Source: a virus. Taken from it: a stretch of DNA of 64,000 nucleotides. The notes below the pieces were generated by a model, which had not been told where the DNA came from, searched no databases, and saw only the letters and a list, made by a program, of their open reading frames with translations. Below are positions 3,901 to 63,449 of the stretch, one piece after another; position 1 is the stretch's first letter, and the number at the start of each line of letters is the position of its first letter. The position numbers and the translations under genes were made by a program. Location of the stretch: the IMG/VR virus record IMGVR_UViG_3300020180_000010, positions 60,348 to 124,347 of that record, one strand, 5' to 3'.

Positions 3901-6900
3901 AAAATCAAGAGGGATTCTTTCTCCGTACCGAATAATGTTAGGAGTCTCGAAACCGTCTATAAATAGATGAAGTTCATCTTGTTGGTTTGTTGAATTGAGT
4001 ATCCAGGAAGCAGCGACATGATGCCGTTCATTTCGTTTCCACTGGCTAACATCGGCGCTTACCTGAAATGTACCGCCTTCACGGTCCCGAACCTTGAAAA
4101 CCAAATACCCAGAAGGGTCTTTCAATATTGAAATTCTATTACGGTTGGGATCTTTACCCGCATCCATAACGTAATGATTCTGATCCGCAACGAAGGTTAT
4201 TCCTTGATGAGGATGATTCTGAATATTGAAATATATTACGTTGCTACCGCTGGTAATGCTTGTTGTATTGAGATCCTGGTCTCCCCAAGCTTTAACATCG
4301 AAATATTCACCATTTGTTTGGATTTTGATTTCATAGCTTGAAACGGATGGTGTGCCGAGGGCATCCACAACATCAACGAACCATCTTAAAAATGTTGATG
4401 ATCTTGCGTATCCATCATCATAACCGTCTTCATATCCATCACGAATATTTGTTTCGCGATCAAGATATATATAGACTCCAGGTTTATTTTTGTTAGGAAG
4501 GCCCAGCGGAGAGATTTTTTCTAAATCCGTTCCACGCTTAGAAACTTTAAATGAATTTCCCGATACCAATGTAGGATGGTATTCTCCAGAACCCAAGAAT
4601 ATCTCTGATGGATTTATAATATTTCCATCTTTTTTGATCGTTATGGTGAGTTCAGCATCGTTATCAATTCCGTCCCACTGAGGAATGATCCAAGAAGAAA
4701 ATGTCCCTTCTTCAAGTCTAAGATTTGAAGATTCCGGGAGAGAAATTGTCTGGCCTGGATCATCCATAAGGATTCCATTGCCATATTTACCTTTGACACG
4801 TTTCAATTCACCTGTTGTGGTGATGGGTCCGGGATAGAGGAATGAATTCCCGAGAGACCAATTTTCAAATACGCTTTCATCAAGATCCGGCACTACATGC
4901 GTGATGATCTTAACGATCTGCTTCATCGCTTCAACCGTTGGCCCCTTTATGAAGCTGCTAAAAGCTGCCTGTATGGACTCTCGATACCGCTCTCGATCAA
5001 ATGTATTGTCGAAGACGTTGAGTAACGGGATATCTATCAATGAACCAAAGTTCTTTAACAAAGCATCGCGTAACGCACCTACTCTGTACGTAACATAATA
5101 CTCATCACCCTCGACCAATGCCGTAGAGGTTCGGAAATCTATTTGATTTTCACCATATTCGTAACTTATAATTATTTCATCAGCCAGATACGTATAATCT
5201 ATATATTGATCGCCTCGATTATAATCTAATATAATTCGTGAAAGATCATTAATTGTGAGCGTGGCCTTCACCACGACTCCGTCACCCACGGCAGGACTGT
5301 TGATTCCTGGCAGCTTTAGTTTGACAGGTCTTCCCAGTATAACGGTTCCGGATCCATTCCATAATTCAGCTGAATCGGATATACGGATCACAGAATACGA
5401 AACCGTAATATTGGGAGGGGTTACCGTGAGATTCAAAGGAACCGTTACAATAAGATCTGCACCAGACTGTTCAACCGTCTTGGAAGACGTGATGACTTTG
5501 CTATTTAGCTGGATCTCTTTTTCTGAAAACGTAACAGAATCAGAAAAATTAATCGGATCAGGATTGGTCTGAAGATCATTATATTCAAACAATCCTCTTA
5601 TGAATGAAATATTATTGTTAACCCGTGGATCCAGCACTGCATTTACAAATGCACCGATCCTCCCCGATACAACCTGGTACGGAAGTCTTGTACCGCTCAA
5701 TACATGATATTGTTCATCCGATACATCAAAAGATGCCGGAAGGATACTGTCCTCCCCGAATGACGCATAATCAAATTCTTTGTCTTTCGGATCAAATATA
5801 TTTCTTTGGTAAAACAAAGAAACGGGATTGATTACGTGAGGATAGATAGGATTGATTTGTGAAAGTTTATACGATACAGATCCGATATCAAATGTCTGAG
5901 CCGAACTCACGACAACATAAACAATACCGTTTAGATAATCTATCTGATACTGCCCGATCGTATTGAACCGATTAAGATTGACAGTCAGGTTGATATCTTG
6001 ACTGAAATACATTTCTTTGACAAAGATATTAGTATCGGAGAAATGAACCGATGTATTGATGCTTGAGCCGATACAGTCTTCAGTCGCGGCAATGATATTG
6101 TTATTTTGTAGGGCGATTTTCAGGACTCTCAGCCCGCTTACGTTTAATTCTTGTAGAATAAATAATAATTCATTCAGCTGATCATGATAACTGACTCGTT
6201 CATGTGTGGCACCTTTTAGCTCCGGAGGGGTGCTGGCATTAAAGTATATGACGTCTTGATTCCATCGAACCGGAGTATAGACGAGACCTTTGGTTTCATT
6301 GAAAATTCTAAAAACGTTCGTTACGGGAGCATTCCTGACCTTCACCGCATTGAGTGTCGGAAGAAGTCTATTCTGGACACGTTCCGCCAATGCTTCTTCA
6401 TGCACCGCTGCTGCAAAATCCTGCCCCGGAATCAATGTCTCTTCATACGTGAATGAGATCTTGGCTTCCAGATCAACCAATTCTCTATCTGGTAACGGCG
6501 CCACATCATACGTAGATTCGTCATACACGTAATCAATAAGTGGCTCGAAAGTTCTGAGATAGGTATAGCTCGCCAGTGGAGGTGTGGCTCCGGTACCCTC
6601 GTTACGACTGGTAGCTCCGAATACATAAACAGTTCCGGAAACGTAATCTACACTGTATTCGCCTATTTTTGTCGGAAGTGCTTCAAAAGAAAATGTTAGC
6701 TCGGTTGAAAATGCCGGATGTGTTTTGGTTAATGTTGGAAATTCATTCGCGTCCAGAAACTTTACTCCATTACTGACTGGACTGATTCCGGCATCCGTAA
6801 CGATATGGGAGTTTTTAATATTAAATATCGTAAGTAATGGCTCGATAACCTCACGAACCGTCTTAACAGTTTTAGTTACGGTGACAGAAGAAGAATCTAT

Positions 6901-7902
6901 TATTTTACCTAAATTTTTATATTTATACTTTACTCTTACTTTTGCTACATTTTTTAATGTAAAATATTGTTGTTCAGTAAGTAATTCGGAAAGTTTAAAT
7001 TGATTAGAGTTTAGAGTTAGATATTTAGATGCATGTTCTGTATCGTACCGATCATCCAGTGCCAGATAACCTAATTTACTAATATCATAATCAAAAAAAG
7101 AGTTACCGTTTCCCAGTATATCATTATACAGGAACGTTAATCTTTCAAGCTTAATAACAGGTGAATGTTTCAGAGTAACGATAAAATCATTTATATTGAA
7201 AGTACCTGCGGTATCGGTAGAGCTGAGTGTCAGGTCTTCTTCGGCATTTTCTTGCTGAAGGCTTATTAATGAATCGGAAAATACCGTAGTGATGTTGGCC
7301 AGGACCGGAGATATAGATTTCCTTTTACCAACACGAAGAATTTGATACGCACCTTCTTCATCCAAACGATCAAACGGGCCTGATTCGCGTGTTTTCAGCT
7401 CATCCACAACTAATTTAGTCAGATAATTTTCATTTTTTAGCTGACGAATATCCGCAAGCGCTTTATTAAGAAGTCCAGCCTGACTCTCAATAGCCTGACT
7501 GACAATCGTTCCATCATCAATATCGTAGATCTGTTCCCTCAGCAATGCTTTCATATTTTTAATGAAAGGATTGCTTGAATCTTGAGGAGAGCGTATTAAA
7601 GAGGCATTATTTTTACCGTCTTCGATCAAAAATGCTGTTCCGTTAACATTTTTGAACTTTGAAAGATCGGTAGATATGAATTCTATTTTGTATTCTATCT
7701 CTGGCGTCAGAGGCAAACACAGTATGTCAAGAGTTGAGCCGCTCACCACTACCGATTGAACCATAACCGGTGGTACGGAGGTTATTTGAGGCGTTATTTT
7801 GACGTTCTCAACCAACAAACCTGGCGTGAGGTTATCGCTGAAACTTACCGTAAGTGTCGTGTTGGATAGAACATTAACCTGTTTGAGTCTTAAATTTGCC
7901 AT
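973..7902 (-). CDS. Giant baseplate wedge protein (P2 gpI/T4 gp7-like core) with two LamG/concanavalin-like domains
   Basis: 2309 aa, directly after the J-like gene. Wedge-type motifs RERYRESIQAAFSSFIKGPTVEAMK and C-terminal LIKTLKPANSRVFISY. LamG motifs GTFSSWI, HHVAASW, LFIDG, LDEIQI and GTIEFWV, WHRVKAVW, LFVDG, LDNLRIS. Confidence 0.75.
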   Translation of the reverse strand: MANLRLKQVNVLSNTTLTVSFSDNLTPGLLVENVKITPQITSVPPVMVQSVVVSGSTLDILCLPLTPEIEYKIEFISTDLSKFKNVNGTAFLIEDGKNNASLIRSPQDSSNPFIKNMKALLREQIYDIDDGTIVSQAIESQAGLLNKALADIRQLKNENYLTKLVVDELKTRESGPFDRLDEEGAYQILRVGKRKSISPVLANITTVFSDSLISLQQENAEEDLTLSSTDTAGTFNINDFIVTLKHSPVIKLERLTFLYNDILGNGNSFFDYDISKLGYLALDDRYDTEHASKYLTLNSNQFKLSELLTEQQYFTLKNVAKVRVKYKYKNLGKIIDSSSVTVTKTVKTVREVIEPLLTIFNIKNSHIVTDAGISPVSNGVKFLDANEFPTLTKTHPAFSTELTFSFEALPTKIGEYSVDYVSGTVYVFGATSRNEGTGATPPLASYTYLRTFEPLIDYVYDESTYDVAPLPDRELVDLEAKISFTYEETLIPGQDFAAAVHEEALAERVQNRLLPTLNAVKVRNAPVTNVFRIFNETKGLVYTPVRWNQDVIYFNASTPPELKGATHERVSYHDQLNELLFILQELNVSGLRVLKIALQNNNIIAATEDCIGSSINTSVHFSDTNIFVKEMYFSQDINLTVNLNRFNTIGQYQIDYLNGIVYVVVSSAQTFDIGSVSYKLSQINPIYPHVINPVSLFYQRNIFDPKDKEFDYASFGEDSILPASFDVSDEQYHVLSGTRLPYQVVSGRIGAFVNAVLDPRVNNNISFIRGLFEYNDLQTNPDPINFSDSVTFSEKEIQLNSKVITSSKTVEQSGADLIVTVPLNLTVTPPNITVSYSVIRISDSAELWNGSGTVILGRPVKLKLPGINSPAVGDGVVVKATLTINDLSRIILDYNRGDQYIDYTYLADEIIISYEYGENQIDFRTSTALVEGDEYYVTYRVGALRDALLKNFGSLIDIPLLNVFDNTFDRERYRESIQAAFSSFIKGPTVEAMKQIVKIITHVVPDLDESVFENWSLGNSFLYPGPITTTGELKRVKGKYGNGILMDDPGQTISLPESSNLRLEEGTFSSWIIPQWDGIDNDAELTITIKKDGNIINPSEIFLGSGEYHPTLVSGNSFKVSKRGTDLEKISPLGLPNKNKPGVYIYLDRETNIRDGYEDGYDDGYARSSTFLRWFVDVVDALGTPSVSSYEIKIQTNGEYFDVKAWGDQDLNTTSITSGSNVIYFNIQNHPHQGITFVADQNHYVMDAGKDPNRNRISILKDPSGYLVFKVRDREGGTFQVSADVSQWKRNERHHVAASWILNSTNQQDELHLFIDGFETPNIIRYGERIPLDFGRKFRALNPEEITSILPRPVISGIDLVTTGGTSVVLAGQSFSAAAILPGDTLFIEESGFNQNGYTILAVSGNQLTLSGVMPASITQGQYCVNRTTIPVSTKIDAYKNIAVTLLHSYFSNTDGVVTNSEYIASSSTNFIIVGVEVGDLVRIETIGAAPHYVVTKVAAGYLKLNRPPPTGTSLLFYLYKDTDQEIPGIRAIIPYYRIERILANDGTLQPNLVLLNGGKQGDLVRIKSFGLNFRRNRQSYYCWSDTQNVLATRLPPPISLDDVKIFKILLASTVIGPDNSTVNLGSFVSSTILPDQPVLSDTGRTLQVNWSGSNVDWSVPVTITVSGMVGITPTSEILTFNSNTYLYTVNKYNSVQGISVTVKPIDLAIPAGVVAVRERYSITTAENSTLVPVIRFSYQVFLGTTLSGSGNTVTDPNGNFSSIDVGNYIQIFTAGPAGYYRVLSVTEDRKTAVVDGTISAFSGATYQILNVTTERSGLQNGFFTFERADQPKQPYALTKGQYEFDYESYIPIRMDPVHGNIYFGSDLNGKLQANAILDEIQIKSIIMTDTRIGEIGKESINGNITKQYNQVKQLSKTSTTLVLLHLDETTLSNAADYYVFRKHGVIQAGRSPNETFGQSLSLRDKPFIVQNDGILNTKTDGTIEFWVSPLIDTFKDPAYRFYFDATGIQTEETVSINSTTVKIKGTASNVLSVKPKNGLVMDYFTGGGTVQGNTIKLKRPLPRHEELCSVTYVPNGLKGDRLSIFKDPYGFLNFLVRANGTDYKIQVPIFWSQGTWHRVKAVWRFNQGKNIDQIRLFVDGFERGNILFGSGLLFGQNYVLGQSFVGGGNISANINFRDPINEFVVGSDHTGQFMAGCLLDNLRISNTARPTYLAFGESIDVHYNKNINAAYPVTTDLFTTYLLDQDSLLEKNTDFALLKNKDFGLFDFSLGIIDSFDIVRNSDRVREVLEALIKTLKPANSRVFISYK

Positions 7903-7912: not shown

Positions 7913-10900
7913 TTATCGGCCCTCCAACACAACCGATACATTATTCGCGACAAAGTATTGATTTCTCTGCGCAGTAATGCTCAAAACTTGCCCTGTCTTG
8001 CCTTCTTGATTGAAGGCCGTGACTCTCACCCGATCAACTCCATCTACGGCACCCGCGACATTCACCATATCCGATGCATCCAGAATATCATTTAGTTTAT
8101 TCGTATTGATCGCTACGATCAATCTATCTCGAACATTCTGCGTGACAGTTGTTCCGGCATTGTTAAATTCTGATTTCAATACAATTGCCAACGTAACATT
8201 AATCTTTATTTCAGAAGCCTGTTTAATCAAAACATCTGAATTGATCGGGCGATTCGTTTCAAGGGTCAAAGTAGTGTCGCCGATCAATCTATTATAGTTA
8301 TATCGTACGAGAATTCTTTCATTTAACTTTGGCGCGGTGTAATTGTAAGTAATTAAGTACCTAGAATTAATTGCAGGCTGGTTTGTCTGGCTGACCGTCA
8401 GCAGAGCATTGGAAATGGTCGTGAATCCGCTCGATACAGCTACTTTATTTATTTGAGCAAAATATTTATTTCCATAAACGGTTCCGTTTCTCGTGAAAAA
8501 TAGATCTTCATGATCATTCGGATCCATATAATAAAACGTAACTCTTACTTTATCACCTATATTTGGAAGATTATTAAGATTATTCGTAGTTGCGGGCAAA
8601 CGTACCTTTAACCCACCAAGCGTCTGATCCGTTATGGATTCATTTGAATAATACAGCGCAGTACGTAATTGGTTACCCAGAACATCATAACTCGTCAGGA
8701 CATCCGTTACTTCCGCCCCAATCACCTCGACTCGTTCCATCTTGACTACCCTGACAATCCCGTAACGGCTACTCAGAGTATCGTTGGAGGTCAAGGAGAG
8801 TGCGGTTCTCAATGCCTCTCCTAGATCCTGAACCAATCCAGAGTCATTGATGGTAAATATAATATCTTTAGCTTTGGTAATGGTGGTGCCGGTAAATGTC
8901 ACGACTCCTTCATTATTTATCTGATCTGATAACGATACCGCGAGTCTCGTTACGGATTGTTTCAATGAAGCCGTACTGAAGTACACCACTAGTACTTTTT
9001 CGTTACCAATGAGCGTTTCCTGAACCGCGTCTGAAAAAGTTAATATGTTTCCGACTACCGTTATATTGGGATCGCTCAGTTCGGAAGCATCGGCAAGATT
9101 CATTACGAATATCTGATTCAGATCTATATTTGATGGAATAGTAAGGCCCGTGAGGATAAACTTACCTGAAGGAGCCAACGTCACATCGGCAATTTCTTTC
9201 GAAATAACATTGCATGCAAACGTAGAAGGCTGGAATCTGGAAAGATCACGTACCTGGTACGTCACCATTACCGATTCATCAACAGTCAAACCTACCTGAC
9301 TAAGATTCAGAATATAGTTAAGATCTGTATCCGTACTAACGGTCCCGGCTCCGTTCCATAATTCTGTCCCGTCAAGTTTGGCTGCCGATACAACATTCGA
9401 GGCTATCAATTCATATTCAGCGCTGGAAAGATCAAGCTTTAAATAATATTGACCTCCAGACGAAAGTGCAATTTTTGCGTGTTGTGATTCAATCAAACAA
9501 GCTGGATTGGATCGGTTACGTACGGTAACCTGATTATGATCATATCCATTACCTTTTCTGATCGCCGGAAGTTCATTCAGTCGGAATGAGAAAAGATCTG
9601 ATATTTCAGCAATATAATTAACTTTTGCCGTAAAAACATTGGGCCCGGAAGGATAATTCTGAACCGGTATCGTAATTAGATTATTATTCAGATTCCCTGT
9701 CAAACCATTTACGATAAATATGTCCTGAACACCGTACGTAACCTGAACGGTCTGACCAGCCTGGGCCGAGGTATCGGTCGGAAGAACCACCGTAACGTCA
9801 TAGAAGATACCGAAACCCGTAACGACTTTGGTGCTCTGAACGCTCCCATCGTTTTGACTGGTTTGGTAAAGTTCTTTTGAAGTATTGAAGATCTTGACCG
9901 AACTAACGGTTTCAAGAGGCATCAATAGCCCCGTCAGGATCACGACTAGTTTTCCTAGATAAACACCGCTCGTTGCGACGGTTACGGTACTGGTTCCGGA
10001 TGAAAAGGCATTTACCGAAATAACCGATGTGATCGGATGGATGGCAGTGCCGCTATAAAATGTTCCGGATGTATTTTTAGTAAAGACTACCGATTCATCC
10101 CTTACAGCATTGCTGAATCCCCAATCCACGCTATCCTGTACGGTTCTTGGATTGGTACGGGTAAATCTTCCGTCATAGTCAACATATGGATCGTATTGTA
10201 CGATCCAAGTATAATCTACCTGAAGGATATCGCTCGGCGAAGGTAGTGTATTTCCAGAAATTTGGATTCTTCCGAGTGTATTGATGGTTCCGGTACCGTT
10301 TAGATTCTGATTCGTTACAGTATAACGTTCTCCCGTCGTGACGTTGAAAACCCTCGTTACACCGGTACATGGAGTATGAAGAAGTGTAATAACAGAACGG
10401 TCCGTCGTGAGTACGGTGCTGTTTTCATTAGTAATTAGAAGATTTTGCTGTAATGCGGGAATCGTCAATACGTCTGTAAACGTAACATTATCCTGACCGT
10501 TGTATTTTCCTTTTACTCTATCTTCCGGAAGATCAGATATCTTATCACTAATCCATACAAATTTATCAAAACCCCAAGGGCTACCCGAATATACACCGGT
10601 ATCCTTAATTAACTCATAATTACCCTGAACTCTACCTAATGAATCAATTGTTTTTTCTTTAAAATTAGATCCGCTTAATGAACCCGTCACTTCCACAATT
10701 TGTTGAGCTGGTTGTGCCGGGAGGGTCTTGGCAGCAATATTATCAATTCTTTTACGATTTACTGTTTTGTTCTCATCACCAACAATTTGACCCAAAACAA
10801 AGTTATTTTTTATATCAGTCGGGTCTCCGCGATTGCTGGCATCACGATAGATAAAGCTATCTACCTGTTCAGCGAGTCTTGTCCCCAGGATAATAATATC

Positions 10901-11716
10901 GACTTTTCCGCCCTGACCTTCTGATATGATGGTAAAGGATCCGTCATCATTCTGAAATACTTGTGTTCCGTCACGAATCATCAGGCTGTCGCCTGGCTCG
11001 ATTACCAAGGCATCCAGAACATCTGTATCCGAGAGAACAAGATTACGGTATCCGAGAGCCGTTCCGACATTGGAGCCGCTGAAGATCGCCAGGACTCGAT
11101 TTCTGAAAGAAGTATCGTCTTCTTGATTCGCTCCACCAGAGAATGGATTTATATTCGTGACATTCGAAATCCCTGCGATGTTGGTTCGGCTGATACCAAA
11201 TTTAGATATGTTACCGATTATGCCGGGAGTCGTGGCGATGACCGGCACTTCAACCGCATACAAATCTGATATTCCGAGGAAATCAAGTTCGTTTCGATAT
11301 CTCGTGGCAACGGCTTTATATAGATTTGATTGAGAAGGATTGATAGAAATGCCGGTTTGAGTTGCGAAGGATATTCCGCTGCTGGAAAAAACAAGCGATC
11401 CACGGCCCACTCCGATGGTCGCGGGGATGCTGGCGAAAGTCAAAAGCGCCACACCACTACTGGTTGTGGATGATTTTCTCGATACTCCAAAGTTTTGAGA
11501 TAAGAAATCAAGGTCACTGCCAGAAACCAGTCTTATGGATTGTTGATCTGAAATTTTAGAAATTTCATCATACAATAGAGAAAGCTGTCCAGCAGGGGAT
11601 TCAATAAATAAATCTCTCGCGACTGTACCGGGCTTGACATCAAGATTGGGCTGGCGTGATCGATAAAAATCAATCAAATTTAGTATTATTTCATCTGCAT
11701 ATCTGATCGTTACCAC
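7913..11716 (-). CDS. Baseplate J-like wedge protein (P2 gpJ/T4 gp6 family) with large internal insertion
   Basis: 1267 aa. N-terminal PGTVARDL, DLDFLSQNFGVSRK, VTNINPFSGGANQEDDTSFRNR, GKVDIII and C-terminal DMVNVAGAVDGVDRV are typical baseplate J motifs. Confidence 0.9.
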   Translation of the reverse strand: MVTIRYADEIILNLIDFYRSRQPNLDVKPGTVARDLFIESPAGQLSLLYDEISKISDQQSIRLVSGSDLDFLSQNFGVSRKSSTTSSGVALLTFASIPATIGVGRGSLVFSSSGISFATQTGISINPSQSNLYKAVATRYRNELDFLGISDLYAVEVPVIATTPGIIGNISKFGISRTNIAGISNVTNINPFSGGANQEDDTSFRNRVLAIFSGSNVGTALGYRNLVLSDTDVLDALVIEPGDSLMIRDGTQVFQNDDGSFTIISEGQGGKVDIIILGTRLAEQVDSFIYRDASNRGDPTDIKNNFVLGQIVGDENKTVNRKRIDNIAAKTLPAQPAQQIVEVTGSLSGSNFKEKTIDSLGRVQGNYELIKDTGVYSGSPWGFDKFVWISDKISDLPEDRVKGKYNGQDNVTFTDVLTIPALQQNLLITNENSTVLTTDRSVITLLHTPCTGVTRVFNVTTGERYTVTNQNLNGTGTINTLGRIQISGNTLPSPSDILQVDYTWIVQYDPYVDYDGRFTRTNPRTVQDSVDWGFSNAVRDESVVFTKNTSGTFYSGTAIHPITSVISVNAFSSGTSTVTVATSGVYLGKLVVILTGLLMPLETVSSVKIFNTSKELYQTSQNDGSVQSTKVVTGFGIFYDVTVVLPTDTSAQAGQTVQVTYGVQDIFIVNGLTGNLNNNLITIPVQNYPSGPNVFTAKVNYIAEISDLFSFRLNELPAIRKGNGYDHNQVTVRNRSNPACLIESQHAKIALSSGGQYYLKLDLSSAEYELIASNVVSAAKLDGTELWNGAGTVSTDTDLNYILNLSQVGLTVDESVMVTYQVRDLSRFQPSTFACNVISKEIADVTLAPSGKFILTGLTIPSNIDLNQIFVMNLADASELSDPNITVVGNILTFSDAVQETLIGNEKVLVVYFSTASLKQSVTRLAVSLSDQINNEGVVTFTGTTITKAKDIIFTINDSGLVQDLGEALRTALSLTSNDTLSSRYGIVRVVKMERVEVIGAEVTDVLTSYDVLGNQLRTALYYSNESITDQTLGGLKVRLPATTNNLNNLPNIGDKVRVTFYYMDPNDHEDLFFTRNGTVYGNKYFAQINKVAVSSGFTTISNALLTVSQTNQPAINSRYLITYNYTAPKLNERILVRYNYNRLIGDTTLTLETNRPINSDVLIKQASEIKINVTLAIVLKSEFNNAGTTVTQNVRDRLIVAINTNKLNDILDASDMVNVAGAVDGVDRVRVTAFNQEGKTGQVLSITAQRNQYFVANNVSVVLEGR

Positions 11717-11727
11717 TTAGACTCCCA

Positions 11728-12162
11728 TCATAAAAATCCAGATACAGTAAATGATGTCTGTACTTTATTGTAAGTTCTATCCAGAACAGTTATCTTGACT
11801 ATAAATAATCTAGGATCGGTATCGTTTCTCTGAACAAGTATTCCGACGATCGCTGCTAATTGTTCTTCCGCAGATAATTTTTGGAAGCTTTCAAGTTGAA
11901 TTCCTTGAAGTGCCTGAAGCGTCGTTATGGATGTCCTTAATTGATTTTCGGCCGCATCCGTTATGATGGCGGTATCGAGATGAGATCCGATTAGAGTTTT
12001 GGATATAAAAGAACCGTACCATGGATTAAAAACGTTTGAACCGGCTGGTGTAATGGCTATTTTTAATATATCTTGAATCAGCTTATCTTTATCCTGAACC
12101 GTCTCTAATTGACCGTTCAGAATGCTGATATCTCCATTTTTTAGCTTCAAATCAAACGACAT
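11728..12162 (-). CDS. gp25-like baseplate wedge/sheath initiator
   Basis: 144 aa. KLIQDILKIAITPAGSNVFNPWYGS and DPRLFIVKITV motifs; immediately upstream of the J-like gene. Confidence 0.85.
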   Translation of the reverse strand: MSFDLKLKNGDISILNGQLETVQDKDKLIQDILKIAITPAGSNVFNPWYGSFISKTLIGSHLDTAIITDAAENQLRTSITTLQALQGIQLESFQKLSAEEQLAAIVGILVQRNDTDPRLFIVKITVLDRTYNKVQTSFTVSGFL

Positions 12163-12212
12163 AACTCTCCATCACAAGCTATACCGGATTATCAGCCGGA
12201 ATAATGATCGAA

Positions 12213-13820
12213 TCAGGAATTTGTCGTCTTGCCTTTATAAATAGCATCAATTATAGTAAATATTCGTCTAACTTGGGTTTCGTATCCCGTCAGGACTGCC
12301 AAAGACCCGAGTGTTCTGGATCCTTTTGATTTTCTATCTTTTACCTTCTCGGATTGAAGCTCAGGATTCTTATACATACGTTCGAACGCTGCATCATCCA
12401 GCATATCCAGCAATATAGCGTGATCAACTGTCCATAAAGCAATGTAAGTTGTCAACATATCAAGTAGTCCGAACCCTGTATCATCACCCATGATCATCGC
12501 GATATTAAATAATGCTGATTCTGACTTTCTTGCAAAATCATTTCTTCTATTCGTAATATTGGTTATTTTTTGCTCATAAACCGTTGGTACGTTTGGCCCA
12601 AAACTTCCCAGCGCCACCTCATCAATTGCCGAAAATACCGTACCACCGATTTGTTTTTTAAATATTTCAAACTCCGTATCGGCAATCAATTTCTCTTTTG
12701 TCAATCTACTTATTTCAAGCTCATCCGGCGTAAGTGTAGCGCTGGATGTATCAAGATCATACGAACTGATGCCTGCGGTGATTCCTTTGGCGGATGGTTT
12801 TGGTTTCCACGTAATATTACTTGTAGTACGGCTCAATTCTCTCTGAGATTCAAAAAGCTGATCCGTAACGGTTTTTAGTAAAACAAAAAGATTCTGTACA
12901 ATAAAAACTTCAGACCTGTATAGCTTCGACGCTCCTCCCAAAAGATCCATTAATCTTTGGCTTGTAAATCTTTCATCTTTTTTAATTTGATCAATAGATT
13001 TTTGTAAATCTTTAAAATCAACGTTTTTATTCGCTACATTGAATCTAACTCTACAAACCTTCTCGATCATAGGTCTGGAAAAGGTTGTATCGCGATTAAG
13101 TATTCTTTCTTTGTCTGTTAGGAATGGTGTTCCGATTTTATTAATCGCCGGAAGAACCGTCAGATCGATCCTCGGATCAACAATGAACGGTTTAATGATA
13201 TGCTGAATAGCTTTTAATGATTTGAGATCGCTGCCACTAAACTGAGCCGTTGGATAGAGTTGTTTGACATTCTCTCTAACCGTATATTCTTTTGTTTGAG
13301 CTTCACCTTCATCTAATGGGGATGATTCGTTGCCTTCTTTCATCATAGACAATTCTCTTGAGAATTGAACAGAATAGGCCAGTGCGGAGCTTATATCGTT
13401 TTCTTTTGCATAGATGGCGAGTCTTGATTTTGACCATGTTTCTCTAGCATCGAGAAGTTTTAACGTTCCTTCAGATAATCCCGCGGCTACTTGGTATCTT
13501 TTATTTCTCAGATCTTCACTAAGGTTTAGATTAGGATCGAATCCAGGATTGTAAGAACCAAGATCTGAACAGATTGGCAAACCAAGTAATCTATAAAAGG
13601 TATTGCAGTAACTTTCTTGCGGTTCACGATTAATCAATCCAGCATGCGTGATCGATTCTATAGCTTTTTCTTCGAATTTAAATTTTGATTGTTCTGGAGT
13701 ATTGTAACGACTTCTATAGCGCTCAATTTCAGACGCGAAACTGTCGTATATTTTAGTGATATCCTGTTTAACATACTGAGTGTCAAAAAAAGAATTCTGA
13801 TTATAAATATTATCCGGCAC
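12213..13820 (-). CDS. Hypothetical baseplate-region protein
   Basis: 535-aa ORF, largely helical-looking, co-oriented in the baseplate cluster; no recognised motif. Confidence 0.7.
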   Translation of the reverse strand: MPDNIYNQNSFFDTQYVKQDITKIYDSFASEIERYRSRYNTPEQSKFKFEEKAIESITHAGLINREPQESYCNTFYRLLGLPICSDLGSYNPGFDPNLNLSEDLRNKRYQVAAGLSEGTLKLLDARETWSKSRLAIYAKENDISSALAYSVQFSRELSMMKEGNESSPLDEGEAQTKEYTVRENVKQLYPTAQFSGSDLKSLKAIQHIIKPFIVDPRIDLTVLPAINKIGTPFLTDKERILNRDTTFSRPMIEKVCRVRFNVANKNVDFKDLQKSIDQIKKDERFTSQRLMDLLGGASKLYRSEVFIVQNLFVLLKTVTDQLFESQRELSRTTSNITWKPKPSAKGITAGISSYDLDTSSATLTPDELEISRLTKEKLIADTEFEIFKKQIGGTVFSAIDEVALGSFGPNVPTVYEQKITNITNRRNDFARKSESALFNIAMIMGDDTGFGLLDMLTTYIALWTVDHAILLDMLDDAAFERMYKNPELQSEKVKDRKSKGSRTLGSLAVLTGYETQVRRIFTIIDAIYKGKTTNS

Positions 13821-14043
13821 GTTTCACTCCTATGAGTGCCAATTCCTGCTCAATGGTCGTCATGACGGGATTCAGAACAAAATAAGCCGTGATCCAACGT
13901 TGCTCTGATCCTGACATACTCCACCATAACCTATCCAGATCGTCTAATAATAAAGCCGATTCCAACGTATCGTAATTCTTGGTTTCGAATTCTTCTTGCC
14001 TCGCCAGATACAACTGAACCGCTGGAGTTATGAGTCCACTCAT
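13810..14043 (-). CDS. Small hypothetical protein
   Basis: 77 aa; start overlaps the upstream stop (ATGA) and fills the gap between two larger genes. Confidence 0.55.
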   Translation of the reverse strand: MSGLITPAVQLYLARQEEFETKNYDTLESALLLDDLDRLWWSMSGSEQRWITAYFVLNPVMTTIEQELALIGVKRAG

Positions 14044-16172: not shown

Positions 16173-16187
16173 GACTCTTTATATATC

Positions 16188-23084: not shown

Positions 23085-23106
23085 CTTACTTTATCTATAT
23101 CTGACT

Positions 23107-23964: not shown

Positions 23965-24013
23965 GATAATATGAGTTGATATGCCTCCGGCATTCTCTTG
24001 TCTTATGCAGGAG

Positions 24014-26158: not shown

Positions 26159-26169
26159 TGTTTATTAAT

Positions 26170-26520: not shown

Positions 26521-26526
26521 TTTTTT
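26480..26526 (-). promoter_or_regulatory. Programmed -1 ribosomal frameshift signal
   Basis: A AAA AAA heptamer (26520..26526) directly before TAG, followed by the hairpin TTAAG-GAACCAGAT...ATCTGGTTC-TTAA. Confidence 0.8.
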
Positions 26527-43193: not shown

Positions 43194-43238
43194 CCTATGA
43201 GAATGGTGAAATACGCATATAATAACATTTTTGCAAAC

Positions 43239-43637
43239 ATGAAGTCTATCAAAACTATTGAAAAAACATTCTTTGTAACCAATATTTCCGATAGAAATGT
43301 TAGTCTGTGTGATCTTAATCTGACTATTCCGGCCAGAACAACTGTCAATCTTTTGTCTCGGGGCCATTACCATTTGACAGAAGAACAGTTAGAATTATCT
43401 AAATCCTCCGGATCTCTATTTAAAAAAAGAAGTCTTGTAAAAGTTAGAAAGATTCCACCTCAGCAAGAAATAATTTCTAAATATACATTAGGCGATGAAG
43501 TCCACAGCCCTAGTCGTACAAAATCTATTGTAGAGTCGGTTCAACCACAATACGAAGAGCTGAATATCTCTGATGATATGTTTGCTCAAGAAAATGTCGA
43601 TATCGTATCGGCTGAGCGTAAAGACTATCTAAAATGA
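43239..43637 (+). CDS. Hypothetical protein
   Basis: Likely start MKSIKTIEK; first gene of a three-gene plus-strand cassette. Confidence 0.65.
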   Translation: MKSIKTIEKTFFVTNISDRNVSLCDLNLTIPARTTVNLLSRGHYHLTEEQLELSKSSGSLFKKRSLVKVRKIPPQQEIISKYTLGDEVHSPSRTKSIVESVQPQYEELNISDDMFAQENVDIVSAERKDYLK

Positions 43638-51902: not shown

Positions 51903-51916
51903 TATCGTGCCTTATT

Positions 51917-54865
51917 CTACTCTTGAGTAAATATAACCAGAAGATCAAATGTTCCGGCGGTAGTTGATGTTGCACATTTTACTGTCAGGCCTTCACCGGC
52001 TCTCAAAAGTACTGATTTTGAATCATTTGTTTTCTTTGCAAAAATTGGAAACATCGTTTGAAGATCATGATCAGAAGACTCAACGTCTTGTGCTCCGGGC
52101 CCCCATTCATCGCTGCTCCAAATATTTCGCCACAATAAAGTTGCCGATTCTCCCGCAACGGTTGCGTTGGTTCTGACGGTAACGTTTGAATCCAATGTAT
52201 CGGCTGAATCCATTTTTTCAATCGCCGTGATAGCGGTTCCAGCGGAATGACCTATTATTCGTCTTAATTCAAATGTAATCGCGACCCCCGTAACACCACT
52301 GACTTGAACATTTACTAGATAAATTTCTTGTATTTTTATTCTAACGGAGCTGCCTACTGCATTCAGAATAGACCACATAGATTTATTATTAGCCGGAACG
52401 ATTGCCGTGGCGAGCGCAGTAAATGTTGCTAATTCTCTATACAGAACCGATACATTATTATTAGGACTGATCGCTACTACCAATGCTGGATCCGCTGCCA
52501 CGGCAGCTGTGCTGGCTGCTTTTACGGCAACCGGGCCATTCGTTGCATCGGTTATCTTGGTAGACCAGGCATTTGCCAAGGAAGCTGCGGTTCCTTGATT
52601 CGCCGTAACGGTACCGCTGACAGTTAATGTGGATTGATCCGATGCCAAAACAACAGGTGTAGAATTAGCAGATGTCTTTTGCCCTAATGTATTTATTCTG
52701 CCAGTAAATGTTGCATCGGCAAGTCGTGTTGATAGTGTAGTTTCGGTCGCGGCTCCGGTCGGAAGCGGTAACGATGCAGCACTGATGGGTTGAGTGACTC
52801 CAGAACCATCAACTCTTAATAATCCTCCTGTCGTAAGTGATAGTGCTGACATCTGACCAGTTGTATAGGTCGGAGCAGCAGTTGTTACGGATCCTCCGAT
52901 ATATGTAGCGCTGGCTGGAGGCGAAGACCCGGTTGTACTGACAGATGCATTATTAGCAGTAACGGTTCCTGTAACGGCAACTGTGTTGTTTGGAGATATC
53001 GCGACTACTAATGCCGGATCCGTCGCAACGGCAGCGGTACTGGCAGCCTTTACAGCTGTTCTGGTGCCTCTTGTCGTCGCGTCTTCAATTACTAAAATTT
53101 GAGCACGTTTCGTGTCAATTCTAGCGGCACCAGCATCATTTTCAGTTAATGCGGTACCGGCTGTTTCATCGAAAATAAAACCAATCGGCTGTACTCTAGT
53201 CGTACCATCAGTAAATACTGCATTGTCGACCAGACCAACAGTAGCAGAGGCATTGACCGTTACGGCTCCTTGATCTGAGGCAATAACGACTGGTATTGAA
53301 TTTGCGCTAGTTTTTGAGCCAACCGTAGGAGCGGTTGAGCCGATCCAACTAGAATTATCTATTCTTAATGAACCGGTTGTAGTTAATGATAACGCTCCAA
53401 GATTTCCTGTTGTATAGGTAGGCGCGGCCGTTGTAACGGCTCCGCCTGAAAGAGATGCCGTTGCAGGTGTAGCGGAACCCGTTGCAGATTCGGAAGCTAT
53501 CTGGGCTCTAAGATTCGCAGCAGTGGATTGAGATGCCGTTACAGCGATACTGCTTTGATCGGAAGCGATCACAACAGGTGTAGAATTGGCAGATGTTTTT
53601 TGCCCTAATGTATTAATTCTGGCCGTAAAAGTAGCATCGGCGAGACGAGTCGATAGGGTGGTTTCGGTAGCCGCACCAGTAGGAAGTGGTAACGATACAG
53701 CGCTGATAGGCTGGGTTGACCCGGATCCATCTGTTCGCAACAATCCTCCGGTCGTAAGGGAAAGAGCATTCATTTGCCCATTCGTATAAGACGGTGTCCC
53801 TGACGTTACCGAACCACCAATATAAGTAGCGCTGGCTGGAGGACTGGTCCCGGTAAGACTTACGGATGGATTGGTAGCGGTGATGCTTGAATTTGGACTT
53901 ATCGAAACAACTAAAGCTGGATCTGTTGCGAGCGGCGCAGTACTGGCGGCTTTTACTGTTGCGGTGTTGGTTCCGTCAGTAATCCTTGTTGTTTGGGTTC
54001 CACCGGTAAGAGTTGCGTCGAGAGCCAAACCCCCTGTTGTTCCGATGTTGGAAGTTACGGTTCCGGAAACAGGTTGAGTAGTGCTGGATCCATCTACTCT
54101 TAAAGCTCCGGCAGTAGTTAATGAAAATGGGTTTATATTTCCAGTAGAGTAGGTAGGTGATGCGGTGGTAACGGAACCACCTACAAGAATCTGAGTGTTA
54201 GATCCTAATGCAGTTGATTGGGTTATTGTTAACTTGGCAACTGTTGCGTCGAGAGCTAATCCGCCAGTAGTGCCGATATTTGCCGTTACGGTTCCATTGA
54301 CCGGCTGAGTTACTGCGGAACCATCTACTTTTAAAGCATTAGAGCCCGTAACCGTAGCAGAATTGCCACCTTGATTAATTGTAGTTAACCAGGGAGTCGT
54401 ATTGGCAGTATTTCCTGGCTGTACAGTCCAGGTTCCGGATTGAGTTGCGGAAACTGTTCCGGATACATTGACATTTCTTCCAGTATTGATATCGACGACC
54501 GAAACATTAACTCCGGTAAATGTAGCTCCGGCTCCTGAAATTACCCATGAAACATTAACCGCACCTCCAGATAACGGATTGAGGGTCAGGCTAGTAATGA
54601 CAGGTGCCGAATATGGCCCGAGTGATCCAGAAGAACCGAAGGTTGTTGTCTGATCGATCGGATCTACTTCATTAATATTAAAAGTAAGCTGAGGTGATGT
54701 TCCGGTTGGAGTTCCCGTGATATTAACTATTACTTTTAAATCTGGAGACGAAAACCCTGTCAGGACAATGTTTCCGTTCGTCGTAACGGTAGCATTAGAT
54801 AGAGCAATCTGATGGTTCAGATTCTCAATTACTGGTTGCGGTCCTAAAAAGAATATTCCGGACAT
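51917..54865 (-). CDS. Modular repeat fibre protein (paralogous shaft)
   Basis: 982 aa; same repeat families as the downstream gene in a different order, with unrelated termini. Confidence 0.8.
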   Translation of the reverse strand: MSGIFFLGPQPVIENLNHQIALSNATVTTNGNIVLTGFSSPDLKVIVNITGTPTGTSPQLTFNINEVDPIDQTTTFGSSGSLGPYSAPVITSLTLNPLSGGAVNVSWVISGAGATFTGVNVSVVDINTGRNVNVSGTVSATQSGTWTVQPGNTANTTPWLTTINQGGNSATVTGSNALKVDGSAVTQPVNGTVTANIGTTGGLALDATVAKLTITQSTALGSNTQILVGGSVTTASPTYSTGNINPFSLTTAGALRVDGSSTTQPVSGTVTSNIGTTGGLALDATLTGGTQTTRITDGTNTATVKAASTAPLATDPALVVSISPNSSITATNPSVSLTGTSPPASATYIGGSVTSGTPSYTNGQMNALSLTTGGLLRTDGSGSTQPISAVSLPLPTGAATETTLSTRLADATFTARINTLGQKTSANSTPVVIASDQSSIAVTASQSTAANLRAQIASESATGSATPATASLSGGAVTTAAPTYTTGNLGALSLTTTGSLRIDNSSWIGSTAPTVGSKTSANSIPVVIASDQGAVTVNASATVGLVDNAVFTDGTTRVQPIGFIFDETAGTALTENDAGAARIDTKRAQILVIEDATTRGTRTAVKAASTAAVATDPALVVAISPNNTVAVTGTVTANNASVSTTGSSPPASATYIGGSVTTAAPTYTTGQMSALSLTTGGLLRVDGSGVTQPISAASLPLPTGAATETTLSTRLADATFTGRINTLGQKTSANSTPVVLASDQSTLTVSGTVTANQGTAASLANAWSTKITDATNGPVAVKAASTAAVAADPALVVAISPNNNVSVLYRELATFTALATAIVPANNKSMWSILNAVGSSVRIKIQEIYLVNVQVSGVTGVAITFELRRIIGHSAGTAITAIEKMDSADTLDSNVTVRTNATVAGESATLLWRNIWSSDEWGPGAQDVESSDHDLQTMFPIFAKKTNDSKSVLLRAGEGLTVKCATSTTAGTFDLLVIFTQE

Positions 54866-60336: not shown

Positions 60337-61125
60337 TCAGCCAGCCAGTACTGACTTACGACCAGCAGAAACGCCGCGGGCATTCAGGATGCCGCAACCG
60401 ACGATTTCCGACACAACCCAGCCAAGCGACAGGCGCTTGGGTTCGTCTGCCGGAAGAACTTCGATGTCCTGCCGAACCGGCATGACTCCGACGAATTCCG
60501 GATCCGCGCACGCAAACACCGTTCCCGGGGGAACGATCTTGCTTACGATGATATCCGCGCCCCAGATGTGAGCATAAAGCCCCGTCTGGAGAACTTCACG
60601 CTGCGAAACTGGATCAAGCTCGCCACCACCAACGCCCTGACCACCACCCGAACCCCACTTGAGGATATCGGTAAATTCATTGATGTTCATGAAGTACTTG
60701 GTCGTTACGAGGTCCCAACGATCAACCTGAACTTTCAGCTCAAGGAGGTCGCGTTTGAGAAGACCCGCGTCCGTAACGTCCTGAACGGTGTTTTCCACCG
60801 AAGCGGCTGAATCAAGCGCTGCGAAGACGTTCGCGTCTTCCTGAGCCATGATTTCCTGACGTGCCTTCTGAACCGCACGATCAATCACGTTGAACCGACG
60901 ACGCCGGACTTCCGCAATACGAACCGTGGGGTTGGATACGATTTCGAATTCCGGAACAACAACGCGATCACCGAATACACGGCTCTCCGGCGCTGAACCG
61001 TTGCTCGAAACAACTACCGCCGCGACATCAATATCACGGTCATACGTCGGTAGAGCGCCCTGCGGCAACATGTCTACAACAAGGGCTCTACGTGCCACCC
61101 CGTGGTAATCTAAATTTCTTCGGAT
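60337..61125 (-). CDS. Major capsid protein, exon 2 (HK97-like fold)
   Basis: IRRNLDYHGVARRALVVDMLPQGALPTYDRD...EIMAQEDANVFAAL...GWVVSEIVGCGILN. Joined to exon 1 it gives a continuous 334-aa protein. Confidence 0.9.
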   Translation of the reverse strand: MRRNLDYHGVARRALVVDMLPQGALPTYDRDIDVAAVVVSSNGSAPESRVFGDRVVVPEFEIVSNPTVRIAEVRRRRFNVIDRAVQKARQEIMAQEDANVFAALDSAASVENTVQDVTDAGLLKRDLLELKVQVDRWDLVTTKYFMNINEFTDILKWGSGGGQGVGGGELDPVSQREVLQTGLYAHIWGADIIVSKIVPPGTVFACADPEFVGVMPVRQDIEVLPADEPKRLSLGWVVSEIVGCGILNARGVSAGRKSVLAG

Positions 61126-62337
61126 CAAATTTGTTATCGCGCTTTGGGTTACCCGTTCGGCGCTTCTTTACTTCTCAGTAAAGTTCAGAATACATCATCA
61201 TCCAATGATTGAATAATCAATCTATCGGCGTTTGGCATCTACTCGTTGAGGATTCTGGCATGAGTTTATATTTCATAGAATCAATTACATGCGGCCTGAT
61301 AATATCAGATAACTTTTGTGTATTTTCTTTATTTAAAGTTATTTGATAATATTTTTTACCTTTGTAATTAAAAATCATCACTTTAGAATTTAAATCAAAA
61401 CATGATTTTAAATAATCTCTAAGTAGATAATTTTCTGATTCTGTAAAACCCATTGAAGCGATTCTCATGTTTACTTTTGCATTTAGATTACCGTCATCCT
61501 GTATCCATACTGCTAGTGATAAGGGTGTTAGGTACATATCTAAATTTTTAGGAACATGTTTAACTCTATTTTCATCATAAAACATTTTGCCAAAAAAATT
61601 CAAATCTTGATGGCAAATCGTGGTAGTTTGAAACATAGTTGAATTTCTGGTTTTATTAACACTTTTATTAAAAGTATTAATAAACGGATCCAGCATTGCA
61701 ACCTTCCAATGAAAATATTGTTCTTGCGCTTCACAGTGACCAAACGAAAATTTAAAGTTACCTTTAGTTGAATCTTTATAAAGACAACCGTCTCCAAGCA
61801 TTCCTCCTACAATCAGTTGCTTTTGAACTGAGTTAAGTGGTACTTGTCGTAAAATATCATATTTACGAAGATTCGAAATTACTACTCTGTTGTGAGCTTT
61901 TAGTAATTTTGATAGAGAGGGTCCGGATATTTCATACCATTTGGACAATGATTTTATTGTTTCGCCATTATCAAATTTATTAATAATATCATTTACCTGA
62001 TCAGGTGTCAGGTCCGAAATATAATTTCTTGTCCATTTTACTTTAGCAGCTTTGAGAATTTTTCTTACTGTTTCGTAACTTTTATCAAGTCGTTCAGCAA
62101 TTTCTCTAACTGTTAATCCAGTCTCATAAAGAATTTTAATTTCTTCGTTTGTCACTTGCCAGTCTTTCCTGCTGATTGTCTATATCATCCATCTTCTGTT
62201 ACTATAACGATTCCGTTTCCGGATAGACTAGCTGCGATGCGTAGCCTTTAGAGTGTTATAGTGAGATGGCTTTTAGAGTTTCCAGCATATGGCCAAATTC
62301 ACATCCCATAATTACTTACGGGAGCCCCTATCCATTA
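61126..62337 (-). mobile_element. Group I self-splicing intron (1212 nt) with homing endonuclease
   Basis: P1 CCCU|UA-AUGGA-UAGGGG with a U.G pair at the splice site; P10 GGAU pairs with exon-2 AUCC; P AUGCUGGAAA and Q AAUCAGCAGG; P3 UUUGGC/GCCAAA; P7 GAGUA/UAUUC; P9 CUUUACU-GAGA-AGUAAAG; terminal G at 61126. Confidence 0.95.
61217..62155 (-). CDS. Intron-encoded LAGLIDADG homing endonuclease with two N-terminal HTH repeats
   Basis: LIVGGMLGDG and LAVWIQDDG motifs; HTH-like GLTVREIAERLDKSYETVRKIL and GETIKSLSKWYEISGPSLSKLL; much more AT-rich than the exons. Confidence 0.92.
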   Translation of the reverse strand: MTNEEIKILYETGLTVREIAERLDKSYETVRKILKAAKVKWTRNYISDLTPDQVNDIINKFDNGETIKSLSKWYEISGPSLSKLLKAHNRVVISNLRKYDILRQVPLNSVQKQLIVGGMLGDGCLYKDSTKGNFKFSFGHCEAQEQYFHWKVAMLDPFINTFNKSVNKTRNSTMFQTTTICHQDLNFFGKMFYDENRVKHVPKNLDMYLTPLSLAVWIQDDGNLNAKVNMRIASMGFTESENYLLRDYLKSCFDLNSKVMIFNYKGKKYYQITLNKENTQKLSDIIRPHVIDSMKYKLMPESSTSRCQTPID

Positions 62338-62553
62338 AGGGTTTGCCATTGACTGCGCGAGGGCGATTTTACCGTCCTGCGTCAAAATGGCTCGTGAAAT
62401 CAAAGTGTCACGGGCATCGTCCGTCATGGACCCGGCAAGTGACGTGTTTGATGGCTGATTTTCTTCCAGTACTGATGCGTACTTTGCGACCACCGATAGT
62501 GCGTCGCGGAGTGAACTCGCGTTGATTTCACCCTTGTTGTTAAACAAAGACAT
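62338..62553 (-). CDS. Major capsid protein, exon 1
   Basis: 72 codons MSLFNNKGE...GKIALAQSMANP, preceded by AAGGAAA; the apparent TAA stop is the first three intron nucleotides. Confidence 0.9.
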
Positions 62554-62771: not shown

Positions 62772-63449
62772 TTACTTGCCGAGCCAGTGGAACACGGCCA
62801 TGGTGAATCGCAGCTGCTCACCGAGTGAGCCTGACGGTGAATTAAGCGCCGAAGCGAGGTAATTCGGAGTCGTGACGAGAGACCCGTCAGTCGTGAATTC
62901 AACGAACCGTGCCATGATCGCACCACCGTTTGCAGTACCGGCGCCTGAGTTTGGAGTCAGAAGACCCGCTGGCGAGACATACAGTGCATCCGCAACCGTA
63001 AGGGTTGAGTTGGTGGGCTGGAGACCCGTGGATGCCGTGGTATCGCATGCATCCAGCGTAACTCCATAAAGGCCCGCACGATTCCAACAAGTAACCTTGC
63101 CAGAACCCGTTGCCGTGTGCGGACCAAGCTGCGCGCCACCCGTCACAACCATACCGGCCGTGCCACCGACTACGCTACCGAAAAGGGTACCGTAACCAGT
63201 CGTACCTTCGTCAGAGAGCCAATACGGACCCGCTGCGCCCGTGCCGAGTGTTGATGTTACGGCGGGACGACGCTTCGTGGTCGTACCGGCGTAACCGTCA
63301 TCAATGTCCGAAGCGTGTTTGTCAGTTGCCTGATCCAAAGCAACGCCAACGAGCGTGACGACTTCGCCACCCTTCATCGCAGTAACCTGTGAATCAAGAC
63401 CGTCAAACTGGCCAAGTGGATGAATATCTGATTGAAGAACTTTTAACAT
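62772..63449 (-). CDS. Probable capsid decoration/cement protein
   Basis: 225 aa, Gly/Thr/Ala-rich, immediately upstream of the capsid gene; TATGSGKVTCW and DALYVSPAGLLT motifs; preceded by AAGGAAA. Confidence 0.7.
   Translation of the reverse strand: MLKVLQSDIHPLGQFDGLDSQVTAMKGGEVVTLVGVALDQATDKHASDIDDGYAGTTTKRRPAVTSTLGTGAAGPYWLSDEGTTGYGTLFGSVVGGTAGMVVTGGAQLGPHTATGSGKVTCWNRAGLYGVTLDACDTTASTGLQPTNSTLTVADALYVSPAGLLTPNSGAGTANGGAIMARFVEFTTDGSLVTTPNYLASALNSPSGSLGEQLRFTMAVFHWLGK

Follow-up and report, generated by a model that had tools for sequence, protein, structure and literature searches.

We analysed a 64,000-nt window of viral DNA, the second half (positions 60,348 to 124,347) of the 124,347-bp linear virus record IMGVR_UViG_3300020180_000010 (G000), and found that the tripeptide Asp-Gly-Tyr (DGY) was in strong excess in its virion proteins. 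The first-pass annotation had counted 19 DGY in ten proteins. This count was exact, and every site was found at its listed position, in 10 of the 47 open reading frames (ORFs; 20,634 aa) and always on the minus strand, which carries almost all genes of the window. The other 37 ORFs contained no DGY. The excess was specific to the three residues, indifferent to context, restricted to outer proteins and kept at similar density while individual sites turned over. These properties were best fitted by a recognised short linear motif, and DGY is probably such a motif, recognised by something.

The record belongs to a large clade of huge, uncultured myoviruses. It lacks a terminal repeat and is classed as a fragment, about 29% complete (IMG/VR, CheckV). 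A collinear stretch was found at 46-220 kb in G001, a relative of 336 kb, which had homologues for 60 of the 130 ORFs of the record. Few window proteins matched known families in PHROG, Pfam or fold searches, and the three metagenome-assembled-genome contigs with matches were each placed in a different phylum. ORFs were called naively (longest ATG, GTG or TTG start, greedy choice, overlap of at most 60 nt), so their boundaries are approximate; tripeptide counts were barely sensitive to these boundaries.

DGY excess and residue specificity

The chance expectation had been put at 3-4 DGY in the window. Computation gave 3.04 for independent residues (order-0) and 4.08 for a pooled first-order Markov background, and the sum was 5.53 when the Markov expectation was calculated per protein. 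The enrichment held against the pooled Markov background, with 19 sites against 4.08 (Poisson P = 6.9e-8). DGY ranked first by Markov P among the 1,593 tripeptides occurring at least five times, and third by order-0 P, behind GGG and QPV. In 200 Markov-simulated proteomes, the mean DGY count was 4.2 with a maximum of 12, and P <= 1e-5 was never reached, whichever tripeptide was considered. Because these simulations covered all tripeptides, they dealt with the post-hoc choice of one tripeptide in 8,000. The claim that 15 sites fell in about 4000 residues also held, as eight ORFs between 27886 and 46983 totalled 4,074 aa. The roughly ten DGF noticed in the same reading were confirmed as a mild excess (10 against 5.5 expected, P = 0.05). 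The virion part of the record held 21 DGY, including two in a 1053-aa ORF that crosses the window start, and the non-virion remainder held none in 18,569 aa (about 3 expected).

We examined whether repeats or codon usage lay behind the signal. When sites less than 20 aa apart were collapsed, 16 DGY were left (P = 6e-6). Collapsing merged the DGYEDGYDDGY run at 4408-4440, which is an imperfect 12-nt repeat, and the pair at 34412 and 34436, which lie 8 residues apart. Internal repeats as the sole cause were rejected, since the 16 collapsed sites were still significant. The 19 sites were encoded by 10 different 9-mers, in agreement with the earlier statement that this was not a DNA repeat. Of the occurrences of the degenerate sequence GAYGGNTAY in the window, 19 were in frame and one was out of frame on the coding strand, and four were on the other strand. 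The DGY signal is at the protein level, not the DNA level. The Tyr codon TAC seemed favoured in the DGY of G000 (12 of 21, P = 0.01), but neither G001 nor a second relative, G002, showed this preference. The GGG codon was favoured at the Gly of DGY compared with other glycines of the same proteins, at 8/21 vs 60/557 in G000, 20/94 vs 126/1823 in G001 and 16/63 vs 229/1574 in G002.

The excess was replicated independently in relatives. G001, G002 and G003 are viral contigs whose sheaths are 43-48% identical. The virion region of G001 contained 52 DGY against 4.4 (order-0) or 10.8 (Markov) expected (P = 2e-19), and its two flanking non-virion stretches contained 0 and 2 against 1.0 and 1.9 (order-0) or 0.6 and 2.4 (Markov). 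In the whole of G002, 63 DGY were found against 4.9 or 14.2, respectively, and DGY was again the top tripeptide (P = 2e-21); in the whole of G003, 17 were found against 1.6 or 2.7. The trend was similar for single proteins. A set of 120 sheath homologues (48-66% identity) carried 267 DGY against 18.2 expected, with at least one in 119 of them, and 120 neck-protein homologues carried 562 against 19.0, with at least two in every one. The two most distal tail proteins carried 844 against 56.0 over 76 unique loci (2-23 per locus). The unrelated virion modules of Eggerthella phage LE2-3, T4, phiKZ and A511 together gave 20 DGY against 10.7 (order-0) or 16.4 (Markov), which is 1.2-1.9x. T4 was the highest of these controls, with 10 against about 3 (roughly 2-3x). 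A generic excess in tail proteins may reach up to about 2-3 fold, and the 10-30 fold of the clade is of another order.

The phage of the window stood at the low end of the clade, with a 6x order-0 excess and about half the DGY density of its close relatives. It has DGF at neck residue 20, DGT at neck residue 178 and NGT at sheath residue 412, where 103, 99 and 107 of the 120 homologues, respectively, have DGY. It looks as if the tag were decaying in this phage.

Residue specificity was determined from the pooled virion proteins of four genomes (79,188 aa). DGY was observed 166 times against 14.8 expected, an enrichment of 11.2x. The one-residue neighbours stayed near 1x. Observed-to-expected ratios were 1.4, 1.5 and 0.4 for DGF, DGW and DGH, 1.1, 0.6 and 0.9 for NGY, EGY and SGY, and 0.3 and 1.0 for DAY and DSY; the reverse tripeptide YGD gave 1.1. 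All three residues are required, that is, Tyr and not Phe, Asp and not Asn or Glu, Gly and not Ala or Ser. The sites lay in at least 10 unrelated ORFs, which bore out the idea of a short exact motif on unrelated substrates. The flanks were weakly constrained. Position +1 was G or V at about 2x, and in a smaller set of 52 sites, 42 had G, V or A there. Hydrophobic positions alternated on either side of DGY in a strand-loop-strand-like manner. A plain beta-turn preference would raise NG or DG followed by any aromatic or beta-branched residue; no such rise was seen. The known tyrosine-corner and immunoglobulin (Ig) consensus patterns have Asp or Gly at Y-4 and Y-2 with a following Cys, or L-x-P-G-x-Y. 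The DGY sites did not match these patterns or D-x-G-x-Y-x-C, as Asp was at Y-2 and Gly at Y-1, without a preference for Cys.

An explanation by chance, composition, internal repeats or DNA-level bias could draw on the fact that 5 of the 19 sites sit in two tight clusters, one of them the 12-nt repeat, and that one tripeptide of 8,000 was tested after the fact. It was refuted by codon diversity (10 codon combinations, 19:1 in frame), by the simulations together with the collapsed count, by the relatives and by residue specificity. We regard it as extremely improbable.

Turnover and placement of DGY sites

The sheath and the neck protein were used to follow individual sites. The tail sheath (913 aa, 27886-30627, minus strand) has DGY at 30103-30111 (residue 173) and 30031-30039 (residue 197). 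Its label was well supported, by PHROG 2839 at E = 1e-10 and by a Foldseek match to solved sheath proteins at E = 2e-12 and probability 1.0. The 521-aa neck or stopper-like protein (39859-41424, minus strand) has DGY at 40894-40902 (residue 175), 40765-40773 (residue 218) and 40591-40599 (residue 276). Foldseek matched it to the neck/stopper of phage 812 and to the neck of Pam3, in agreement with its label, and Pfam gave a weak match to an fn3 domain at its N-terminus.

Gain and loss were counted by parsimony on trees built with the DGY columns masked, for the 120 sheaths and the 120 neck proteins. At least 65 events over 23 columns were needed for the sheath, and at least 101 events over 20 columns for the neck protein. 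Sites were therefore gained and lost repeatedly at differing aligned positions, a point that the earlier reading had listed for checking. The orthologues of the 1441-aa virion protein behaved similarly, with 5-7 DGY each, mainly at differing aligned positions. In aligned columns, DGY was exchanged with DAN (90 vs 12 sequences), NAL, TAT or LGT, which meant that the fold needs neither Gly nor Tyr at these places. The lineage L052 is nested within the DGY-rich sheath clade and had no DGY in 6,271 aa of the same proteins, where its relatives had 10-12. In its sequences (IMG/VR, 19.5-21 kb), DVH replaced a conserved DGYGN. Given longer contigs, L052 would be a natural loss-of-tag control. A metagenome scan for a longer L052 sequence found nothing.

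The recurrent DGY columns of the sheath all lay within residues 145-592, away from the conserved parts at either terminus. When six genomes were pooled, orthologues of the DGY-bearing proteins had 116 DGY against 7.7 expected (15x), and orthologues of the tube-to-wedge block had 7 against 3.5 (2x; 24,198 aa). In the window, this contrast block consists of twelve ORFs (6,528 aa, 7913-27838, minus strand), from the gp6-like wedge to the presumed tube, and contains no DGY. The capsid ORF (60337-61128) and the presumed tube ORF (27215-27838) were likewise free of DGY, as had been claimed. Surface mapping covered five sites in two AlphaFold2 (AF2) models, each with a predicted local distance difference test score (pLDDT) of 77. 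In the sheath model, DGY173 and DGY197 each open a 5-residue loop (DGYGA and DGYGN) between bridge residues. In the neck model, DGY175 is in a confident loop or bridge, and DGY218, which is invariant in 49 sequences, and DGY276 are in low-pLDDT coil. Of the five sites, three were thus in confident short loops or next to bridge residues and two in low-confidence coil, and these segments may be exposed at the surface.

Glycosyltransferase genes and possible explanations

A cluster of five genes immediately follows the last gene of the virion operon. It has the same orientation and is located 2.3-6.9 kb ahead of the window start. Its order is a GT4/GT1 glycosyltransferase (GT), a GT2, a 337-aa protein, a second GT2 and an NDP-sugar (nucleoside diphosphate sugar) 4,6-dehydratase. 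Pfam supported the GT4/GT1, both GT2s and the dehydratase; the 337-aa protein had no Pfam, PDB-sequence or Atlas family. The gene order was kept in all five relatives first examined. Among 71 unique loci with at least 4 kb of downstream sequence, every one had at least one GT homologue and 69 had the GT4; within the 10 kb seen, the two GT2s were present in 59 and 58 of them and the 337-aa gene in 49. G001 has a 23-kb island at this place, with further GT2s, GT11, GT10-like and GT1-like transferases, an FkbM methyltransferase, nucleotidyltransferases, and a GDP-mannose 4,6-dehydratase and an epimerase of the GDP-fucose pathway. No flippase or oligosaccharyltransferase was recognised in the cluster or the island, so that a soluble cytoplasmic pathway would be the simplest reading. 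A TubZ/PhuZ-like tubulin gene (Pfam Tubulin and TubZ-like_C; G000:C1:52094-53452) directly follows the sugar cluster, and a tubulin gene was at that place in 42 of the 71 related loci.

The first-pass annotation had suggested that DGY may be a sequon, a cross-link or a docking tag. The tag-like statistics agreed with this suggestion in general; they did not choose among the three. We infer that DGY is read by some factor, that the Tyr would be the acceptor and that the GT cluster would be the writer. Selection would keep DGY on outward-facing proteins, namely the outer domains of the sheath, the neck, the distal tail and fibre-like proteins. A trans-acting factor would recognise the exact tripeptide, and soluble glycosyltransferases of the phage would modify the Tyr hydroxyl inside the infected cell. 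The result would be a sugar coat over the particle exterior. Covalent modification of Tyr by the phage's own glycosyltransferases is the likeliest single mechanism, and we put it forward tentatively. In its specific form, with somewhat more reserve, DGY might be the sequon of an undescribed cytoplasmic Tyr-O-glycosylation in which GT2 and GT4 enzymes act on folded or folding outer proteins, with a glycan that varies between lineages and is fucosylated or methylated in some relatives.

Several results weighed against this link to glycosylation. A sister lineage with the same gene order and sheaths of about 1,070-1,140 aa was near background around the sheath (40 DGY vs 26.0 expected, 1.5x, in 24 partly redundant loci), yet it keeps GT genes. 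A GT4 orthologue (32-36% identity) was present in five of five long sister records. In G005, a complete 335-kb sister genome with 17 DGY against 4.7 in its virion region (3.6x) and 16 against 11.9 elsewhere, this GT4 lies 450 bp after the last virion gene. Beyond it, the GT4-GT2-GT2 cluster is replaced by an island of some 16 kb (G005:C1:171574-187770; L192/L193) with at least six GT1/GT4-type transferases. The same island also holds a GT-methyltransferase fusion and sulfatase-family, sulfotransferase-like, nucleotidyltransferase, DUF711 and GSCFA-family genes. GT2_278 and the 337-aa gene were found in none of the five sister records, and GT2_239 gave weak distant matches in two. On gene content, these absences might point to the GT2s as the writer. 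However, 33 G000 genes have a homologue in G001 and none in G005; the absence of the GT2s is therefore not specific, and the genes sharing this profile are too many to single out a writer. The lineage L087/L106 keeps the GT4, the GT2, the 337-aa gene and the second GT2, but has 4 DGY in 4,641 aa. Presence or absence of the GT cluster thus failed as a discriminator, as GT genes were at that spot in every lineage examined. Glycosyltransferases, named in the earlier reading among the genes to look for, were linked to the virion operon, and their presence did not strictly track DGY richness.

Further points against the glycosylation reading came from the proteins themselves. Non-virion proteins were not depleted of DGY (11 against 7.7 expected at 180-336 kb of G001), although stray sites might well be selected against if the cytoplasm held a promiscuous enzyme. 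Inner tail proteins, too, were at baseline and not depleted. Given T4, some of the excess may be a general trait of beta-rich tail proteins. The GT cluster could instead serve glycosylation of DNA or of the host surface. A thymidylate-synthase-family enzyme is encoded in G000 (G000:C1:13655-14491, E = 2.5e-76); a match to it was looked for in G001, which is 78% complete, and none was found. A DNA-modification role for the sugars might therefore hold for this phage and is less likely as the conserved role. We know of no enzyme, from phages or from bacteria, that adds a sugar to the Tyr of D-G-Y, and a literature search for 'DGY motif' found no paper. A search on Tyr O-glycosylation in phage returned nothing on phage proteins, one on glycosylated tail sheath returned nothing relevant, and nothing relevant was among the literature matches listed for jumbo-phage virion glycosylation by mass spectrometry.

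Other explanations were weighed on the same evidence. DGY may be an intrinsic structural micro-motif, a tight turn or loop in which an Asp-Tyr interaction stabilises exposed beta-hairpins and which needs no reader. DG is favoured in beta-turns. The hydrophobic alternation around DGY, the three modelled sites in short loops next to bridge residues, the lower-level excess in T4 and in the virion region of G005, and the lack of depletion in non-virion proteins were all consistent with it. However, turn propensity should also lift NGY, DGF, DGW, DGT and DGV, and these were at 0.4-2.1x, compared to 11.2x for DGY. The exchange of DGY with DAN, NAL and TAT meant that the backbone needs no Gly. The excess was also specific to the lineage, in view of the unrelated controls and the DGY-free nested lineage L052, and the beta-rich inner tail proteins of the same phages were at 2x. 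We consider such a micro-motif less likely than not, yet a serious rival. The same holds, at a slightly lower likelihood, for a non-covalent site, which would serve for docking of a decoration, assembly or chaperone protein, or would form an Asp/Tyr ligand patch (for example, for host polysaccharide) with weak multivalent adhesion. Its specificity, restriction to outer proteins and turnover would be the same as for a sequon. It needs no depletion in non-virion proteins and is independent of the GT cluster, whose presence is not strictly tied to DGY. Against it, no protein emerged as a candidate reader, a motif of three residues is very short for specific contact between proteins, and the sites occur across many unrelated folds and in low-confidence coil.

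Other covalent chemistry appeared improbable. This would be Tyr sulfation, phosphorylation, nucleotidylation, cross-linking or Asp-Gly isomerisation, by a host enzyme or an unrecognised phage enzyme. The strict preference for Tyr over Phe and for Asp over Asn or Glu suited it, and sulfation sites typically have acidic residues close to the Tyr. In addition, further enzymes may be encoded elsewhere, as so small a part of the genome is present in the record. However, the sulfotransferase families PF00685 and PF13469 were absent from G000 and G001, both of which are incomplete, with a host enzyme also possible, and the sole match above cut-off was in the weakly enriched G005. A scan of the 20 larger non-virion ORFs, of which G001 shares 14, revealed no kinase or sulfotransferase. 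These ORFs were replication, nucleotide-metabolism and transcription genes, plus an M24 peptidase. A nicotinamide phosphoribosyltransferase gene also lies in the non-virion half (G000:C1:15935-17344).

We compared the proposed glycosylation at DGY with known systems. Known sequons include N-X-S/T and the D/E-X-N-X-S/T of Campylobacter PglB. DGY would resemble glycosylation sequons in having three residues, a hydroxyl or amide acceptor and an obligatory acid, and in that its sites scatter over unrelated surface proteins and turn over. The Asp of DGY is at -2 from the Tyr, as the acid of the PglB sequon is from its acceptor. Unlike in known sequons, the presumed acceptor is Tyr and the middle residue is a fixed Gly, and a glycan on DGY is a proposal. 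The known sequon systems act at the membrane or in the periplasm through an oligosaccharyltransferase, and none was seen in these phages. Cytoplasmic GT2 enzymes O-glycosylate flagellin in Listeria (GmaR) and Clostridioides difficile (CD0240). There, a soluble GT2 glycosylates a folded structural protein before assembly, which is the role that would be required of both GT2s of the cluster; unlike the proposed enzymes, they act on Ser/Thr of one substrate, and the likeness is at the level of the Pfam family.

Published systems gave partial parallels. The general O-glycosylation motif of Bacteroidota is D-(S/T)-(A/I/L/V/M/T) (PMC8698959). Mycobacteriophage virions are glycosylated by phage-encoded glycosyltransferases (Freeman et al. 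2023, as described in an excerpt of PMC12619734), and the same excerpt places the glycans at the C-termini of capsid and tail-tube subunits. As proposed here, phage-encoded glycosyltransferases would likewise act on the phage's own structural proteins. Unlike in the mycobacteriophages of that excerpt, the DGY-bearing set leaves out the capsid and presumed tube ORFs, and the DGY sites are internal save that of the 102-aa protein; no defined tripeptide is known for the mycobacteriophage system. Tyr O-glycosylation is described for surface-layer (S-layer) proteins of Paenibacillus alvei (SpaA) and Thermoanaerobacter, with beta-Gal->Tyr and beta-Glc->Tyr linkages and often through rhamnose-containing adaptors made with dTDP-sugar enzymes (PMC2943079, relevant section). 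It shows that prokaryotic O-glycans can attach to Tyr. In contrast to the pathway proposed here, transfer in the S-layer case is thought to be co-secretional by an O-oligosaccharyltransferase, and the relevant section of PMC2943079 gives no consensus and concerns neither phage nor DGY.

Should an enzyme indeed read DGY, no acceptor motif for the modification of phage virions would have been defined before it. Tyr-directed glycosylation of proteins, which is rare, would gain an example whose code is three residues long and could be transplanted into other proteins. Huge environmental phages of a widespread clade would then coat tail, neck and fibres with glycans at genetically programmable positions, and this would bear on how they adsorb, how stable the particles are and how hosts or grazers recognise them. 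Even without an enzyme, this 10-30 fold tripeptide excess, which extends over hundreds of proteins while sites constantly turn over, shows selection on a linear motif in viruses with unusual clarity.

Further DGY-bearing ORFs and neighbouring features

The remaining DGY-bearing ORFs are all on the minus strand. A 2309-aa distal tail or baseplate-associated protein (973-7902) has DGY at 4432-4440, 4420-4428 and 4408-4416 and no PHROG or Pfam match. It had been labelled 'wedge', which was not correct, as the true gp6-like wedge is the 1267-aa ORF at 7913-11716, without DGY. Orthologues of the 2309-aa protein and of the next protein accounted for the 2-23 DGY in the 76 unique related loci. The 1053-aa virion protein is the last gene of the virion operon; its N-terminal 311 codons lie in the window (2-934), and its two DGY, at residues 321 and 982, are both outside it. 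Just upstream of the sheath gene, a 265-aa protein (30756-31553) has DGY at 31173-31181. Its DGYGN was kept in the five of five orthologues aligned there and was replaced by DVH, SIT or TDY in DGY-poor lineages. The 1441-aa protein (31946-36271), of no known family, has DGY at 35621-35629, 35414-35422, 34436-34444 and 34412-34420. A 102-aa protein (37636-37944) has DGY at 37645-37653, five residues from its C-terminus; a homologue was looked for in G001 and none was found.

The other ORFs were smaller carriers of the motif. A 298-aa protein (41939-42835) has DGY at 42497-42505, and its orthologues in G001 and G005 have one each. A 170-aa protein (42861-43373) has DGY at 43128-43136, and its G001 counterpart (120 aa) has three. 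A 364-aa protein (45889-46983), with no PHROG or Pfam match, has DGY at 46429-46437 and 46360-46368. Upstream of the capsid gene, a 225-aa protein (62772-63449) has DGY at 63291-63299, and its G001 counterpart (220 aa) has two. The labels 'terminator' for the 265-aa, 'adaptor' for the 298-aa, 'Ig-like' for the 170-aa and 'decoration' for the 225-aa protein are tentative.

Two giant ORFs (1636 and 982 aa) at 46992-54865 had 44-48% G+C, compared to about 41% elsewhere, and zero DGY. They showed similarity to G001 only in patches of about 50-110 aa. They may be recently acquired fibre genes in which the tag has not yet accumulated. The capsid ORF at 60337-61128 was the C-terminal part of the major head protein (PHROG 2522, profile positions 68-317). 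A LAGLIDADG homing-endonuclease ORF (61217-62155) parts it from upstream coding sequence (60337-62553 as a whole), and this placement is what an intron or an intein-like element within the capsid gene would give.

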